Shown: piece after piece, positions 669 to 9,046 of the stretch
How positions within the stretch are numbered: the first letter of the stretch is position 1
Layout of the letters: every line of letters starts with the position of its first letter
The notes under the pieces: model-generated
What the model was told of the DNA's origin: nothing
What the model saw: only the letters and a program-made list of their open reading frames with translations
Database searches by the model: none
Translations under genes and position numbers: made by a program
Source: an uncultured archaeon
GTDB taxonomy: Archaea; Asgardarchaeota; Hermodarchaeia; Hermodarchaeales; Hermodarchaeaceae
DNA length: 11,044 nucleotides
Assembly: GCA_964347045.1 (NCBI GenBank)
Contig: CAYFXC010000034.1
Coordinates: 1 to 11,044 of the forward strand
Direction: 5' to 3'

Positions 669-1289
669 TTGTCGATGTATGCCAATTATGAGTCGTGTTC
701 TCTTTGCGAGAACCAAGCCGAATTTTCTTGTTTCAAATGTGGCAAACTTATTTGTGGAAATGATGCAAGGATTCGCGTCGTTTGTACTAGTTGTTATATT
801 CCCAAAAAATGTGAATACAAAATTCATCAGGCATTCAGCGAGGATGTCGAAACCATTGAAGAGATGGTTAAGCTCTTTTGGGGAGACCCTAAACAACTTA
901 TGTTCAATCAAAGCTTCATAGTCACTGAATACCCCGCAATCGTGGTAAAAAATAACGGAAAGCTTGTTGGATTCATTTCATATACCCCATTTGACGATGA
1001 CGCGGTTCTCATCCTCGCATTAGGCATTCTTCCTCAGTTCCAAGGTTGTGGAATTGGAAAAGAGCTTGTAGCCCATATCGAAAAGATTGCACAAAAACAA
1101 GGACACCAGCGTCTTCTTGTCGTAACGACGAATGATAATCTACCTGCTCTTGCCTTCTACCAGCGAATTGGATTCCAGTTGTACGAAGTGGTTCCTAATG
1201 TTGTAGCTCAAAAATTAGGAGGTCTGTATCCAGGGATTGCAGATATTCCTATTCGTGATGAGCTCAGATTACAGAAGCGTGTCCGCTAG
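669..1289 (+). CDS. GNAT family N-acetyltransferase with N-terminal Cys-rich zinc-finger-like domain
   Basis: Acetyl-CoA-binding motif A (ILPQFQGCGIGKEL) and motif B (TTNDNLPALAFYQRIGF), C-terminal IPIRDEL. N-terminal CSLC..CFKC..IC..CTSC. Start may be ATG 675. Confidence 0.85.
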   Translation: MSMYANYESCSLCENQAEFSCFKCGKLICGNDARIRVVCTSCYIPKKCEYKIHQAFSEDVETIEEMVKLFWGDPKQLMFNQSFIVTEYPAIVVKNNGKLVGFISYTPFDDDAVLILALGILPQFQGCGIGKELVAHIEKIAQKQGHQRLLVVTTNDNLPALAFYQRIGFQLYEVVPNVVAQKLGGLYPGIADIPIRDELRLQKRVR

Positions 1290-1298
1290 CTTCTGGTT

Positions 1299-1922
1299 TT
1301 AGGTTTGATGTGGCTTCCAGGGTACTCCATATTTCCCATCAAAAGCAATTTCTTCTAAGGGTTTTCGTGGTCGAGCTGAAGGATTTTCATCAGGAACCCC
1401 AAGAGCTACTAATACTATAATATCCGCGTTCTCCGGGATTTCTAGCTCCGATTTGACTAGTTGGATAAATTCAGCAGACCGCGATTCATATGAAGCAACC
1501 CAACAGCTCCCATAACCTAGTGCGGTCGCAGCGAGAACTAGATGATCGGTTGCTATCATAGGGTCTTGTAGATGCCATCGAGCAAGGTTCCCGGGGCAAC
1601 AGCTGCTTTGTTTTTCTCCTAATACCACGATGATAGCGTTCGCATTGGCAATAAACCGTTGTTGTGCGGGCTGGCCTAAGAGCGCTATTGTTTGAGGATC
1701 TTTCACAACGATGAAGCGCCATGATTGACTGTTATTTGTGGATGGGGCTAATCGGGCGGCTTGAAGGATTTTTTGTAAATCAGAATCAGGAATTTTATCG
1801 GATTTGTATCGTCGGATGCTGCGTCGTTTTTGGATTACTTGAAAGAAATCATTGGCAGTTTGATGGAGTACAGTGGAGTTAGATTTTGGTAAATTCGGTT
1901 CATCAGTTTCTATTTTTGTCAT
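1299..1922 (-). CDS. Nitroreductase family (FMN-dependent) protein
   Basis: RRSIRRY, ARLAPSTNNSQSWRFIVV, LAATALGYGSCWV and RPRKPLEE motifs. ATG 1922 preferred; TTG 1931 is possible. Confidence 0.9.
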   Translation of the reverse strand: MTKIETDEPNLPKSNSTVLHQTANDFFQVIQKRRSIRRYKSDKIPDSDLQKILQAARLAPSTNNSQSWRFIVVKDPQTIALLGQPAQQRFIANANAIIVVLGEKQSSCCPGNLARWHLQDPMIATDHLVLAATALGYGSCWVASYESRSAEFIQLVKSELEIPENADIIVLVALGVPDENPSARPRKPLEEIAFDGKYGVPWKPHQT

Positions 1923-1967
1923 ATGTACCAATCCTTTTTTTCATGTGTGCGTTCAGGATATTCTCTT

Positions 1968-2069
1968 CTACCTTCGACTGAGTAAAACAGATTTAGCGAA
2001 TACTTTTCCATTGTCTGATATTCGAGCATTCGGACAACAAAGTTTGATCCATTTCTTATTATTTGCCAA
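1968..2069 (-). CDS. Putative 33-aa Cys-Cys peptide (MANNKKWIKLCCPNARISDNGKVFAKSVLLSRR)
   Basis: TTG at 2069 with GAGGT SD 8 nt upstream (2082-2078), directly downstream of the operator cluster and TATA box and upstream of the nitroreductase. Shares the CCP motif with its neighbours. Confidence 0.4.
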   Translation of the reverse strand: MANNKKWIKLCCPNARISDNGKVFAKSVLLSRR

Positions 2070-2087
2070 TTTTATCGACCTCACATT

Positions 2088-2148
2088 TATTGGATGTCCG
2101 ATATAGCGTATTGGACACCCGATATTTAAATGTATCGGGCACCCAATA
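2088..2148. promoter_or_regulatory. Three palindromic operators (TATYGG-N4-CCRATA) around a TATA box; promoter for the CC peptide and nitroreductase
   Basis: TATTGGATGTCCGATA 2088-2103, TATTGGACACCCGATA 2109-2124, TATCGGGCACCCAATA 2133-2148. Minus-strand TTTAAATA at 2130-2123 lies between sites 2 and 3. Confidence 0.75.
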
Positions 2149-2183
2149 TTTTTTGGTCTCTTCCCACACCCGTCACGGAACAT

Positions 2184-2223
2184 GAAAAATCAGAAAAGAA
2201 CGCCCTCAAAGCCACTGCGGCGA
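2184..2223 (-). terminator. Putative padR terminator
   Basis: On the minus strand right after the padR stop: a weak CGCC..GGCG stem followed by TTCTTTTCTGATTTTTC. Confidence 0.4.
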
Positions 2224-2562
2224 TTAGGGAGGCTGGCTAGTGTTGATGATTTCATGAAAAACTTTGTAGAAATAGCGCGTGGCTATATCGAGTCCGACTC
2301 GTCCTTCCTCGGTAAGCGTATAGACAACTTGGCGACCCCGTTTTTCTCCACTTATCAAGTTCTTTTGGGTGAGCTCTTTTAGTGCTGGATAAATCGTTCC
2401 AGGTGAAGGCTTGGTTCCTCGTCGGAGCCCGATTTGTTCCGCAAGCTCTTGACCATTCATGGATTTTTTGCCAAGCTCCCAAAGGATCTGGAAGGAGAGC
2501 ATACCGCGCATATCACAACAGTCCGGGGGGCAGCATTCTTCGGTTTCAGTTTGTTCTGGCAT
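2224..2562 (-). CDS. PadR family transcriptional regulator with N-terminal CCPPDCC motif
   Basis: Winged-helix PadR signature (ILWEL..M.GQEL..PSPGTIYPALKEL..GRQVVYTLTEEGR); two vicinal Cys pairs near the N-terminus. Confidence 0.9.
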   Translation of the reverse strand: MPEQTETEECCPPDCCDMRGMLSFQILWELGKKSMNGQELAEQIGLRRGTKPSPGTIYPALKELTQKNLISGEKRGRQVVYTLTEEGRVGLDIATRYFYKVFHEIINTSQPP

Positions 2563-2568
2563 GGTATT

Positions 2569-2636
2569 TATTGGGCACCCGATACATTTAAATGTGTCCG
2601 TTTTCTAATAACCACAAACATATTGGACAACCAATA
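2569..2636. promoter_or_regulatory. Divergent padR/arsM promoter region with two palindromic operators and a palindromic TATA box
   Basis: TATTGGGCACCCGATA 2569-2584, CATTTAAATG 2585-2594, TATTGGACAACCAATA 2621-2636. Confidence 0.75.
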
Positions 2637-2679
2637 TATTTGGTGGAACGAATTGACAGAAACTAAACGCGTAACCGAA

Positions 2680-3393
2680 ATGAATGATGAAGAAATCAAA
2701 GCAGAAGTACGAAAAGCCTATTCTAAAGTAGCCCAACCCACCGGCTCATGTTGTGGACCAGCCACTAGGAACACTTATGCGAAATCCCTAGGATATTCGG
2801 TTGATGATCTTCCCGAATCGGTAACGGAATCTTTTGCTGGATGTGGAAACCCCACGGCTCTCGCAAGCCTAAAAGAAGGCGAAATTGTGTTGGATTTAGG
2901 AAGCGGTGCCGGATTAGACGTATTCATGGCAGCTCGTCAAGTTGGACCAACTGGTCATGTGATTGGCGTCGACATGACACCCGCCATGATTGAAAAGGCG
3001 AAAGATAACGCAGAGAAACTTGGCGTAACCAATGTTGAATTCCGATTTGGTGATATTGAAGAGCTCCCCGTTGACAATGACTCTGTTGATGTTATCATTA
3101 GTAATTGTGTCATCAATCTAGCCCCAGATAAAGGCAAGGTATTCCGAGAGTCCTTCCGAGTACTTCATCCTGGTGGACGAATGTTAATCTCCGATATTGT
3201 CTTAGAAGCGTCCTTGCCTCAAGAAACTCGAGAGGCAGTAGCTTCGTACACCGGCTGCCTTGGTGGGGCAATTCTCAAAGAAGAGTATCTTCAACTCATT
3301 CATGACGCCGGATTTACCGATGTACGAATTGTTAGTGAAGCCCCGTTCAATATTGCTACGAGCGCAAAGATTGAAGCTTTCAAACCCAAATAG
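2680..3393 (+). CDS. arsM: Arsenite S-adenosylmethionine methyltransferase
   Basis: ArsM Cys motifs SCCG, GCGNP, ISNCVINL and GCLGGA; SAM motif VLDLGSGAGLD; GVDMT. Start is ATG 2680 or TTG 2653 (GGTGGA SD); the ORF-track start at 2434 overlaps padR. Confidence 0.92.
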   Translation: MNDEEIKAEVRKAYSKVAQPTGSCCGPATRNTYAKSLGYSVDDLPESVTESFAGCGNPTALASLKEGEIVLDLGSGAGLDVFMAARQVGPTGHVIGVDMTPAMIEKAKDNAEKLGVTNVEFRFGDIEELPVDNDSVDVIISNCVINLAPDKGKVFRESFRVLHPGGRMLISDIVLEASLPQETREAVASYTGCLGGAILKEEYLQLIHDAGFTDVRIVSEAPFNIATSAKIEAFKPK

Positions 3394-3471
3394 AGAATTT
3401 ACCAATAATCCACGTTTTCTACTCATTATTACCATAAGCCCCCGCCGATTCAATACAAGGTGATTAAACTC

Positions 3472-4029
3472 ATGAATGATCAAAGGCAACGAAAGGAAGT
3501 CTTTGAGAAGAACATGTTTAGCCCCCTTCCCATCGCTTTGGTTGGGGCTCTCGTCAACAACGTTCCTAATTATCTTGTAATTGGATATATGTGCCCCTTT
3601 GATTTTGGACGATACCTATTCTTCAGTTTGTATAAGAAACGACACACCCGTATCGGCATTCACGAACACCAAACTTTTAGCGTGAATGTGCCTTCCGAGA
3701 ACCTTATCAAAGAGGTTGCAATCTGTGGTAGCAAATCCGGACGGGACATCGATAAGAGTGTTCTTTTCGACACGTTTTATGGGGAGCTAAAAACTGCACC
3801 TATGATTCAGCAATGCCCCATCAATATCGAATGTGAAATTGCAGAAATCTTGGATTATGAACAAAACGACGGCATAATTGGCCGCGTAGTCAAATCCTAC
3901 GTCAACCCAGAATGTCTCACGGATGGAAAACTAGACATGCGAAAAGTTCATCCCATTATCTGGACAACTGGAGGAGACTTCAACTATTACCAGCTCGGGA
4001 ATCGTATTCCCCAAGAAGAAGAGACATGA
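3472..4029 (+). CDS. Flavin reductase family protein (flavoredoxin-like)
   Basis: PLPIALVG..N, FSVNVPS, CGSKSGRDIDK, APMIQQCPINIEC and IGRVV motifs of the FMN split-barrel family. AGGTGA SD upstream of ATG 3472. Confidence 0.88.
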   Translation: MNDQRQRKEVFEKNMFSPLPIALVGALVNNVPNYLVIGYMCPFDFGRYLFFSLYKKRHTRIGIHEHQTFSVNVPSENLIKEVAICGSKSGRDIDKSVLFDTFYGELKTAPMIQQCPINIECEIAEILDYEQNDGIIGRVVKSYVNPECLTDGKLDMRKVHPIIWTTGGDFNYYQLGNRIPQEEET

Positions 4030-5521: not shown

Positions 5522-6199
5522 TTAGCCTAGATGGTTAACGAATACTGCATTCATTGTTATGACAAGAGTATCAAGGGCTGTTCCTGGTTCTAAGAGAATA
5601 CCATTCATCCAATTTTCATCACGCGAAATGAAGTTCGAATCGAACGGGTTTACTGTGTCCGGAACGCCCGAATAAGTACCATTCAAGAACATAATGTGCC
5701 CTTCGGGACTTTGAATTGTGAAGAGCTGTATCCACGTACCATCTGTGTAAAGGATGTCTAGCCCAAAACCAATGGAGTACATTAGATCTGAAATAGAGTC
5801 CAATGATGGCGTGGTTGCAGCAAGACCTGTATAGATTGCATCGTTGATACTTACAACTTCAGCAACAGTAGTGAGGAAATGCTCTTCATAGAACGTGATA
5901 TTGCCGGGTCCAAGTGAATCATTAAGAAATGTGGCAGATACAATCCAAGCCCCAGTGAAATTTGATACAAAGAGGGCTGCCATTAATTCGGGATACACGA
6001 TGTCGCTGGAATTACCTAAAATCTGGACAGCCAAGATATTGGAAGCTTTGGCTTCCATGAATGTGGAAAGGCTAGTTCCAGATACCCCATCATCGTTAGA
6101 AGGATTGGGGGCAAAGAGACTAAAAAGATAGGGAGCCGCAAAAAGGACTCCGATCACAAGGGGAATAATCAACAGACCTATCCATTTCCTGTTTATCAT
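5522..6199 (-). CDS. Membrane-anchored or secreted hypothetical protein
   Basis: Basic residues followed by a single N-terminal TM helix, then an acidic S/T/N-rich domain with five N-x-S/T sequons (NSS, NFT, NDS, NIT, NGT). ATG 6199 follows GGGGTGG; GTG 6205 is an alternative start. Confidence 0.75.
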   Translation of the reverse strand: MINRKWIGLLIIPLVIGVLFAAPYLFSLFAPNPSNDDGVSGTSLSTFMEAKASNILAVQILGNSSDIVYPELMAALFVSNFTGAWIVSATFLNDSLGPGNITFYEEHFLTTVAEVVSINDAIYTGLAATTPSLDSISDLMYSIGFGLDILYTDGTWIQLFTIQSPEGHIMFLNGTYSGVPDTVNPFDSNFISRDENWMNGILLEPGTALDTLVITMNAVFVNHLG

Positions 6200-6397
6200 A
6201 ACCACCCCAAATTTTATTGATAATCCTATAATCGGCTGAAATATTATCCTATGGATTAGAACACCAAGAAGTTCGATTTACTCTCATTTAATGACAACCA
6301 TGTGGGCAACGCAAAGTAACTATTTACTCGATTATCACGGAGTAGGATAGTAAAGCAAAAATCAAGGAAAAAGCAACTAATGCCTAGAGGGACCATC

Positions 6398-6838
6398 ATG
6401 AAATCTACAAAAGATGTGTTAAAAATTGGTGATTTTTGGGAAGAACCGGTGCAGTTCAAATTAACTATCCTCAATGATGGAAATTGTCGTGCGGGTCACC
6501 AATCAGGAGATACTTTTGTATTTTCTTGGAACACCCCAGAAGGAATTTGCTCAGAAAGTTTCATTGGCATGTATCCCATCCTTCAGTCACTTAGAGTTAT
6601 GGGAGATATGCGCGAACTTGGAAGCCCCGAACGAAACACACGAATCTACAATTGCCCATCACGGGTTATCCAGTTCCAGATTAACGCACTTTACCGTTGT
6701 AACCTCTGCGGAAGCACCTTGAAAATTAAAGAGAATGGAACCATCGGGCATAGACTTGAAAACAAGGCAGAAAAGATCCACCTGCGCGTATGCAATAACT
6801 GCTATAAAATGCATCAGGGAAAGACTCTCACTTGGTAA
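6398..6838 (+). CDS. TIGR04076-like protein with C-terminal Zn-ribbon
   Basis: GNCRAGH..GD.F..TPEGIC..YP..G..CP pattern typical of TIGR04076 proteins, plus C-terminal CNLC..CNNC. ATG 6398 follows GAGGG; 6380 is an alternative start. Confidence 0.7.
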   Translation: MKSTKDVLKIGDFWEEPVQFKLTILNDGNCRAGHQSGDTFVFSWNTPEGICSESFIGMYPILQSLRVMGDMRELGSPERNTRIYNCPSRVIQFQINALYRCNLCGSTLKIKENGTIGHRLENKAEKIHLRVCNNCYKMHQGKTLTW

Positions 6839-7975: not shown

Positions 7976-9046
7976 ATGAATCTTGATGTCTCGAAAGTAA
8001 AGGAAAACCCCTGCATTCGAGAAGCGCTTCTCTTTGAACAATTGGCGAGAAAAAAAGTGCAATGCGGTGTTTGCAAACGCCGTTGTATCATTGCACAGGG
8101 CAAACGCGGGTATTGCCAAGCTCGAATAAATATCGGGGGGCGGTTGTACGTGCTCACATACGGGGATATTAGTTCGATGAGCGTGAACCCCATTGAAAAG
8201 AAACCCTTGTACCATTTCTTTCCAGGAACACGGGCCTTAACAATTGGGAGTTGGGGTTGCAATTTTGCATGCGTTTGGTGTCAAAATTGGAGCATCAGTA
8301 AACGTGCACCAGACCCGCACCACGCTAACTATCTTTCACCTGAAGAGTTTGTTAACACAATCGAGCAACGGAATTGTCAGGGAACGAGTTTTTCTTTCAA
8401 TGAGCCCACCACCGGCTTTCTAGAATATTCATTGGATGTCATGCCCCGCGCTCGTGCCCGCGGATTCTACAATACTTATGTCACCAACGGCTACATGAGC
8501 GATGAATCACTGAGATGGTTACGCGCTGGTGGACTCGATGCCATGAACATCGATATTAAAGGTTGCCACACTGCAGTCCGTAAATACTGTGGTGTGGATG
8601 TGGAAAAAGTTTGGCAGACAGCCCAGCAAGCCGTAGATTTGGGAATCTGGGTGGAAATCACCACTTTGGTGATTCCAGGGGTAAATGATACCACTCACTG
8701 CCTGTCGCGCATAGCCAAGCGGATTCATAAGGATTTGGGTGTTGATGTACCATGGCATGTCAGTGCCTTTCACCCTGACTATCGCGCCACAGAATATGGA
8801 CTATCGACGTCCACTCCTTTACCAACACTTGAAAAGGCACATACCATTGGGAAAAAAGCCGGTCTAAACTTTGTTTATATAGGTAACGTGCTCGGACACC
8901 CAGCAGAACACAGCTACTGTAAAACCTGTAACGCCCAACTCATCAGACGAGTAGGTTATGATATCCTCTTAACACACTTGTCCAAAGATAGCACCTGTAC
9001 CCAATGTGAAACAGCGAATCCTTTTCAATTATTAGTCAAATCCTAA
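7976..9046 (+). CDS. amrS: AmmeMemoRadiSam system radical SAM enzyme
   Basis: N-terminal CGVC..C..G.C..R.N, PIEKKPLYHFFPG, radical SAM GCNFACVWCQNW, EITTLVIPGVND, PWHVSAFHPDY, FVYIGNV and C-terminal CxxC pairs. Confidence 0.92.
   Translation: MNLDVSKVKENPCIREALLFEQLARKKVQCGVCKRRCIIAQGKRGYCQARINIGGRLYVLTYGDISSMSVNPIEKKPLYHFFPGTRALTIGSWGCNFACVWCQNWSISKRAPDPHHANYLSPEEFVNTIEQRNCQGTSFSFNEPTTGFLEYSLDVMPRARARGFYNTYVTNGYMSDESLRWLRAGGLDAMNIDIKGCHTAVRKYCGVDVEKVWQTAQQAVDLGIWVEITTLVIPGVNDTTHCLSRIAKRIHKDLGVDVPWHVSAFHPDYRATEYGLSTSTPLPTLEKAHTIGKKAGLNFVYIGNVLGHPAEHSYCKTCNAQLIRRVGYDILLTHLSKDSTCTQCETANPFQLLVKS

Follow-up and report, generated by a model that had tools for sequence, protein, structure and literature searches.

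The arsM locus and its palindromes

The complete 11-kb contig C34 (11,044 nucleotides, called the window below) of an Asgard archaeal metagenome-assembled genome (MAG; 2.58 Mb, 83 contigs, 89% complete) carries an arsM gene divergent from padR, the gene of a small winged-helix regulator with four cysteines in an N-terminal tag. Because a PadR-type repressor with such a tag appears to control an arsM regulon, this Asgard archaeon probably senses arsenic by a route other than the customary ArsR protein. MAGs of Hermodarchaeota, Hodarchaeota and Thorarchaeota supplied the nearest database proteins. The genes concerned and the putative control elements between them (operators O1 to O5) are, in order of position:

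1299-1922, minus strand: nitroreductase-family flavin mononucleotide (FMN) enzyme (PF00881) with a vicinal cysteine pair in SCCPGN; last gene of a putatively operator-controlled unit; alternative TTG start at 1931
1968-2069, minus strand: small open reading frame (ORF) of 33 codons with a TTG start, encoding MANNKKWIKLCCPNARISDNGKVFAKSVLLSRR
2078-2082, minus strand: Shine-Dalgarno-like GAGGT before the small ORF, in a conserved (G)GAGGT column of the genus alignment
2088-2103, unstranded: operator O5, TATTGGATGTCCGATA, over the expected start site of the peptide-nitroreductase transcript (minus strand)
2109-2124, unstranded: operator O4, TATTGGACACCCGATA, abutting the TATA box
2124-2131, unstranded: TATA-like box ATTTAAAT of the peptide-nitroreductase unit, between O4 and O3, invariant in the genus alignment; putative function
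2133-2148, unstranded: operator O3, TATCGGGCACCCAATA
2224-2562, minus strand: padR, 112-aa single-domain subfamily-2 PadR winged-helix protein (PF03551)
2509-2541, minus strand: codons of the EECCPPDCCDM tag, residues 8-18 with Cys10, 11, 15 and 16; proposed metalloid-binding site
2569-2584, unstranded: operator O1, TATTGGGCACCCGATA, 7-22 nt upstream of the padR ATG, between TATA box and start
2586-2593, unstranded: TATA-like box ATTTAAAT, ~27 nt upstream of the padR ATG; putative function
2621-2636, unstranded: operator O2, TATTGGACAACCAATA, overlapping a ATATATTT box (2634-2641), ~42 nt upstream of the arsM ATG
2680-3393, plus strand: arsM, 237-aa short As(III) S-adenosylmethionine methyltransferase with all four conserved cysteines (NF008823)
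3460-4029, plus strand: flavoredoxin-like FMN protein (PF01613), ATG probably at 3472, without an operator of its own here

The PadR protein matched PF03551 over residues 27-91 with 44.9 bits (cut-off 27), PadR being its best Pfam family; on the ArsR/SmtB model NF033788 it reached 28.7 bits, below the cut-off of 55. Its N-terminus is MPEQTETEECCPPDCCDMRG, and the four cysteines located there are the only ones in the protein. The EECCPPDCCDM motif and the divergent orientation to arsM, both reported in the initial annotation, were found at the positions given above. An AlphaFold2 (AF2) model with a predicted local distance difference test score of 83.8 showed the tag (residues 1-16) as disordered, followed by helices at 18-32, 37-48 and 54-66, a wing at 70-83 and a long C-terminal helix at 85-109. 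The closest solved structures were 5DYM, 3ELK (TA0346), 4ESB (BC4206), haloarchaeal RosR and Rv3488, the best PDB matches being 110-127 aa long. The CCPPDCC tag was present in none of the solved PadR proteins shown aligned.

The product of arsM scored 312 bits on NF008823 (cut-off 263), and its best solved relatives are the arsenite methyltransferases 5EVJ and 4FR0. It contains the motifs SCCG, AGCGNP, SNCVINL and TGCLGG, of which the cysteines in GCGNP, SNCV and GC(L) align with those of the solved relatives. An ArsR/SmtB gene had been said to be missing from the window, and this was the case: PF01022 gave 14 matches genome-wide, none of them on this contig. A cysteine pair is absent from all 14 of these ArsR-type proteins, 10 of which are entirely free of cysteine. 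Neither type of ArsC was found in the genome, in agreement with a published survey that lists Asgard lineages without arsC (PMC10060404). As the genome is incomplete, the absences of canonical ars components are provisional. Of the arsenite efflux gene acr3, contig C42 retains the last ~21 codons at its very end (5927-5989, minus strand); the promoter and the remainder of the gene are unassembled. A second arsM, on contig C50 (L138:1878-3146, minus strand), encodes a protein of 422 aa with an extra C-terminal domain and 352 bits on NF008823; the TetR gene directly ahead of it (3153-3773, minus strand) encodes a product with a CECPREVC motif.

The window contains five copies of the 16-bp operator pattern TATYGG-N4-CCRATA (at 2088, 2109, 2133, 2569 and 2621), all within 550 bp; shuffled sequences predict 0.10 copies. 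The whole genome contains six copies, and the sixth (C12:5128) was treated as a chance occurrence since it lies between two convergent 3' ends. The palindromes had been described as identical; the five copies do lie at the promoters of padR, arsM and the nitroreductase unit, but they share a common consensus only. A spacing of one helical turn separates their half-sites, which is what would be expected of a winged-helix dimer. The five operators flank two TTTAAAT boxes, and a 25-nt block comprising TATA box and operator is 92% alike between the two promoter regions. The distance of ~27 nt between the TATA-like box and the padR ATG suggests that the padR mRNA is leaderless, with the operator over the start site. 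With respect to the TTTAAAT boxes and the start codons, the operators are placed in a way that fits repression in archaea. PadR is very likely the protein that binds the palindromes, and we infer that it regulates by repression.

Conservation of tag, gene pair, operator and regulon

Relatives of the tagged PadR were found in at least 573 species of Asgard archaea, Bathyarchaeia, Methanosuratincola, Hadarchaeota and Nitrososphaeria. Neighbourhoods were counted at the best 80 loci from these species, one genome being scanned per species. PadR homologues number more than 1000, and the tag is present in almost all of the 120 matches listed. In an alignment of 21 diverse members, C11, P12, P13, C15, C16, D17, M18, R19 and G20 were invariant and C10 nearly so; some clades have the variants CxxCPPDCC or CCPEIPNCC. 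The cysteine tag, on the conservation of whose pairs the initial annotation had staked its proposal, is conserved in the alignment and in almost all of the matches listed. A plasmid search with the PadR query returned generic winged helix-turn-helix (wHTH) matches, none with the tag. Two unusual relatives were noted. In a genome of a Thorarchaeota family (G042, C47:17592-17879) the match to the tagged PadR lies inside a 267-aa open frame, which may be a fusion or an assembly artefact, and no arsM match was found there. A single-cell genome of Thermoproteota encodes an untagged second PadR paralogue (L044:9533-9829, plus strand) 1.2 kb downstream of the tagged padR, with two operator copies of its own just upstream and an adjoining DsrE-like gene.

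At 74 of the 80 loci arsM lies divergent and directly beside the tagged padR. The anticipated clustering of such regulators with ars genes is borne out for arsM; acr3, arsC and arsP, which had been named alongside it, were seen at none of the 80 loci. All four cysteine motifs were present in 64 of 82 ArsM-cluster neighbours, and arsM was found in 54 of the 55 Asgard genomes with a tagged PadR. Every other cluster of neighbours was limited to at most 17 of the 80 loci, the annotated ones (TATA-binding protein, aspartyl protease, aspartyl-tRNA synthetase) being lineage-specific and unrelated, and tblastn with the window's own proteins revealed no other widely shared neighbour at these loci. With its other neighbours this rare and unrelated, the conserved module is the padR-arsM pair, and the pairing is not mere synteny since these neighbours are unrelated housekeeping genes.

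The operator is conserved together with the pair. Its core, ATYGG-N4-CCRAT, was used for counts across genomes and occurs 149 times in the 931 kb of the 80 loci, compared with ~3.6 copies expected. With few exceptions these copies are found 60-180 nt ahead of the portion of padR that was aligned, and most of the loci have an operator at the fixed position that O1 takes relative to padR. One or more operators, usually two, were present in 69 of the 74 padR-arsM intergenic regions. The N-terminal extensions 'IGHPI/IGCPI' of PadR entries in the databases are the translated operator, an artefact of over-extended gene calls. A perfect operator, ATTGGACATCCAAT, was also observed in the Thorarchaeote chromosome CP070761.1 (L104:3938), ~30 nt upstream of a TTTAAAT box before the gene of transcription factor B (TFB); it could be there by chance or reflect a link to general transcription. 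Further single operator-like sites outside the present genome are located inside a gene (L106) and between tandem metabolic genes (L105).

The nitroreductase gave 91.9 bits on PF00881, above threshold, and matched PDB entry 3G14 in a profile search (E = 1e-34); the flavoredoxin-like protein gave 54.6 bits on PF01613, also above threshold, and has its nearest solved relative in the flavoredoxin 3BNK (E = 1.2e-33). The solved relatives of the nitroreductase lack the SCCPGN loop; among 18 aligned orthologues, 16 retain its CC motif. Of 201 sampled Asgard genomes, 23 have a nitroreductase orthologue, and an operator lies within 220 nt upstream in 17 of the 20 for which upstream DNA is available. 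The flavoredoxin gene is probably co-transcribed with arsM. Operators precede the nitroreductase gene also at the loci of close relatives (L011-L018). In the complete chromosome CP070761.1 a whole-genome pattern search found the site pair of padR-arsM and two further placements: an operator pair directly upstream of a 61%-identical nitroreductase that keeps SCCPGN, at a second locus, and a single operator directly upstream of a 70%-identical flavoredoxin, at a third. One other family has the order operator, nitroreductase, flavoredoxin, and in the Hodarchaeota sampled it is the nitroreductase that is divergent from the tagged padR. Among the genomes checked in which arsM and padR lie apart, two still had operators upstream of arsM (L134, L135). 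Gene order was shuffled while the cis-element was kept, which is the strongest computational argument for co-regulation and shared function. The initial annotation had counted the nitroreductase, and possibly the flavoredoxin, as regulon members; the operator follows both even to unlinked loci, but they belong to the regulon in part of the Asgard lineages only. A different arrangement was observed in a Hodarchaeota-like genome (G058), where an operator-less arsM is preceded by the gene of a 99-aa protein assigned by eye as AbrB/SpoVT-like (L131:1175-1474, plus strand). Its two vicinal cysteine pairs (SSCC, VCC) make it a second candidate for a non-ArsR cysteine-pair regulator of arsM.

The small ORF between the nitroreductase gene and its operators is open over 32-33 codons in 10 of 10 members of the genus, with the Shine-Dalgarno-like GAGGT and an ATG or TTG at a fixed distance. 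CCP is invariant in the eight aligned members, its place being taken by two separated cysteines in two others. By codon position, the pairwise differences amount to 0.31/0.26/0.52, and the other two frames contain 13 and 19 stops. From this pattern the ORF is regarded as a real micro-protein gene, seen in this genus only. It had earlier been read as a 71-aa peptide (1968-2183), whose first 38 codons are translated operators; because that ORF runs through three operators, its upstream part is non-coding. What stands of the proposed small cysteine peptide is a conserved ORF with CCP, 33 aa long (1968-2069) and not 71. A complex prediction of the nitroreductase dimer with the 33-aa peptide scored 0.02 (mark 0.32), which is evidence neither for nor against an interaction. 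Vicinal cysteine pairs occur as CCP in PadR, nitroreductase and peptide and as CCG in ArsM; the flavoredoxin has none.

Among the remaining genes of the window, a GNAT gene (669-1289, plus strand) was considered as a regulon member and rejected: it has no operator, its synteny is confined to the genus and it scored 34.6 on ArsN2 (cut-off 125). It is convergent to the nitroreductase gene, beside which it is kept in several genus members (62-67% identity), and its product has an N-terminal Cys-rich, B-box-like zinc ribbon. Further downstream in the window are genes of a Cys-rich TIGR04076-family protein (6380-6838, plus strand) and of a radical S-adenosylmethionine enzyme of the AmmeMemoRadiSam system (7976-9046, plus strand); the TIGR04076 gene also follows the flavoredoxin gene in two related loci (L016, L017).

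Proposed mechanism and alternative explanations

The observations are the gene content, the invariant tag, an operator that is non-random and conserved across the phylogeny, and a regulon that is conserved as well; from them the following mechanism is proposed. PadR would act as a dimeric winged-helix repressor on the 16-bp palindrome and, when bound, would block three units, namely padR itself, arsM (probably with flavoredoxin) and CCP peptide-nitroreductase; this is proposed because the palindromes lie on or beside the TATA boxes and start sites of the two promoter regions. The sensor would be the disordered N-terminal CCPPDCC directly before helix 1. A trivalent arsenical, As(III) or perhaps methylarsenite (MAs(III)) or Sb(III), would be bound by three thiolates of the tag, the tag might then become ordered against the DNA-binding domain or across the dimer, and PadR would leave the DNA, inducing the regulon. 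The tagged PadR would fill the place that ArsR takes in most ars and arsM operons. As(III) is bound through vicinal cysteines and S3 sites in ArsR, ArsD and ArsM. Three invariant cysteines and a nearly invariant fourth in a flexible tag fit this S3 chemistry, and the near-obligate partnership of the tagged padR with arsM points to arsenic or antimony as the effector, with As(III) or MAs(III), perhaps Sb(III), as the likely species. Overall we consider it probable that PadR represses the arsM regulon and is released from DNA when a trivalent arsenical binds to the tag.

Several observations speak against this assignment. Genes of nitroreductases and flavin reductases are typical of thiol and electrophile stress regulons, and RosR, an archaeal PadR-like regulator of oxidative stress, is among the nearest structures. 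Five of the 80 loci have no adjacent arsM, and acr3, arsC and arsP were seen in none of the 80 neighbourhoods. About half of the Asgard genomes with arsM have no tagged PadR. In the Hodarchaeota checked, the partner of the tagged PadR is the nitroreductase; the arsM gene there lacks an operator and comes after that of another cysteine-rich regulator. The present genome itself has a second arsM, behind a TetR gene, with no strict operator pattern on contig C50. Finally, the tag is disordered in the AF2 model, which hence provides no geometry in support of an S3 site.

Part of these observations would be accounted for if the same repressor and operators served a thiol redox, electrophile, sulfur (S0/polysulfide) or soft-metal (Hg, Cd, Cu) switch. 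The regulon would then be a general thiol-stress or detoxification response with the ArsM-type methyltransferase as just one member. Nitroreductase and flavin reductase are classic members of the bacterial quinone and electrophile regulons of YodB, MhqR and NemR, and archaea have in SurR a CxxC switch that responds to S0. The structural closeness to RosR, the Hodarchaeota pairing with nitroreductase and the five loci lacking an adjacent arsM point in the same direction. A general stress response, however, hardly explains why the tagged padR is paired at 74 of 80 loci with an enzyme in which every As(III)-binding cysteine is retained, or why arsM is present in 54 of 55 PadR-bearing Asgard genomes. 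The conserved neighbours at the 80 loci include no peroxidase, thioredoxin or quinone reductase, and vicinal Cys-Cys pairs, which form strained disulfides, are better suited to the chelation of metalloids than to redox switching. We regard such a switch, the main rival of the proposed mechanism, as unlikely though not far-fetched.

Alternatively, the tag might bind a metal with a structural or cofactor role, either Zn or an Fe-S cluster common to both subunits of the dimer, and the effector might be an organic ligand in the pocket of the PadR dimer, as in LmrR and PadR; candidates would be a methylated or aromatic arsenical or a nitro compound that is turned over by the enzymes of the regulon. 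Characterised PadR proteins of subfamily 2, such as LmrR, take up hydrophobic ligands at the interface of the dimer, the four cysteines of each monomer could coordinate Zn or a cluster, and the regulon includes a nitroreductase. Against this, the tag is predicted to be disordered rather than a folded knuckle, and PadR has no further cysteine that could complete a cluster site. The number of tag cysteines falls to three in some clades and to two in one listed homologue, which fits an S3 or S2 metalloid site better than a Cys4 site. This explanation appears quite improbable. It is extremely improbable that the palindromes are bound by another factor or are a non-regulatory repeat and that PadR and arsM are adjacent by inherited synteny without a regulatory link, even with the operator-like sites upstream of the TFB gene and at a few apparently irrelevant places: the operator, a palindrome with the one-turn spacing expected for a wHTH dimer, accompanies padR across phyla at a fixed distance from the start and the regulon genes to unlinked loci, and the flanking genes are otherwise not conserved.

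The release of PadR by a trivalent arsenical, if true, would represent a further independent origin of an As(III) site on a winged-helix scaffold, here as a portable N-terminal tag. Microbial methylation of arsenic in paddy soils and anoxic sediments depends on arsM, for which the tagged family would provide a defined sensor and a 16-bp operator in at least 573 archaeal species. The small repressor and its operator would be a part usable in arsenic biosensors, and the co-regulated cysteine-pair nitroreductase, the flavoredoxin and the micro-protein would be candidates for the missing reductive arsenic steps in archaea without ArsC. A more far-reaching and rather doubtful proposal unites the nitroreductase (SCCPGN), the flavoredoxin and the CCP micro-protein of 33 aa in a flavin-dependent thiol relay, so far undescribed, that would act on arsenicals in place of the ArsC and thioredoxin steps, neither of which was found in this incomplete genome. 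The tasks of such a relay might be the reduction of As(V) or methylated As(V), the renewed reduction of the ArsM disulfide or the delivery of As(III) to ArsM. In that case an ancient anaerobic pathway for arsenic, present in several archaeal phyla, would have the tagged PadR as its master switch.

Comparison with known systems

The mercury system of MerR and MerA offers an analogy only: there, too, a soft-metal sensor controls a flavin enzyme whose CC pair can accept the toxic ion. The folds are unrelated, and our data contain no evidence for reduction of a metal or metalloid.

By its architecture the protein belongs with the subfamily-2 PadR proteins LmrR, BC4206 (4ESB), TA0346 (3ELK), Rv3488 (5ZHC) and RosR (6QFD), which share a length of ~110 aa, helix 1, the wHTH and a long C-terminal dimerisation helix and all bind palindromic operators. 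The effectors of the solved members are drugs, phenolics, Cd/Zn (Rv3488) and oxidative stress, and none of those aligned has the CCPPDCC tag.

In function it would resemble the ArsR/SmtB repressors (R773 ArsR, AfArsR, CgArsR and the MAs(III)-selective SpArsR), autoregulated homodimeric winged-helix proteins at ars or arsM promoters. The likeness extends to a presumed S3 (or S2) thiolate site made of clustered or vicinal cysteines, which in these proteins arose independently at different places of the fold. PadR, however, is a different wHTH family, its cysteines are in an N-terminal extension and its operator differs.

The closest precedent is bacterial. In PadRars, the sensing cysteines are reportedly located inside or behind the wHTH of a longer protein; the PadR described here, which can be set beside PadRars by description, has its only four cysteines in the N-terminal tag of a 112-aa single-domain protein. 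PadRars of Azospirillum halopraeferens Au 4 is a PadR-family repressor of a bacterial trivalent-metalloid operon (Zhang, Wu, Tang, Chen, Rosen and Zhao 2022, Environ Microbiol 24:5139, doi 10.1111/1462-2920.16147, as reported in PMC11566425 and PMC12817078). The initial annotation had taken the archaeal module as not described. No paper on the archaeal tagged family was found in the literature on PadR with arsM, arsenite, archaea or Asgard, but PadRars, an As(III)/Sb(III)-type repressor of the PadR family from a bacterium, has been in print since 2022. As far as these reports describe it, PadRars resembles our protein in being of the PadR family, not ArsR, and in controlling a trivalent-metalloid resistance operon through an inverted repeat. 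The arsenic or antimony resistance gene that a PadRars-type regulator controls is represented here by the divergent arsM (74 of 80 loci). The PadRars operator, quoted in PMC12817078 as CCTTGA-N11-TCAAGG, is absent from the promoters of the window: three matches with two mismatches were found, all in coding sequence and none in 1932-2223 or 2563-2679. The host of PadRars is a bacterium, whereas the tagged PadR family is archaeal, and its target is an efflux or oxidation operon, whereas here arsM, flavoenzymes and a micro-protein are concerned. We therefore describe the tagged PadR as an archaeal variant within a kind of sensor known from one bacterial publication; it differs from PadRars in cysteine site, operator and regulon.

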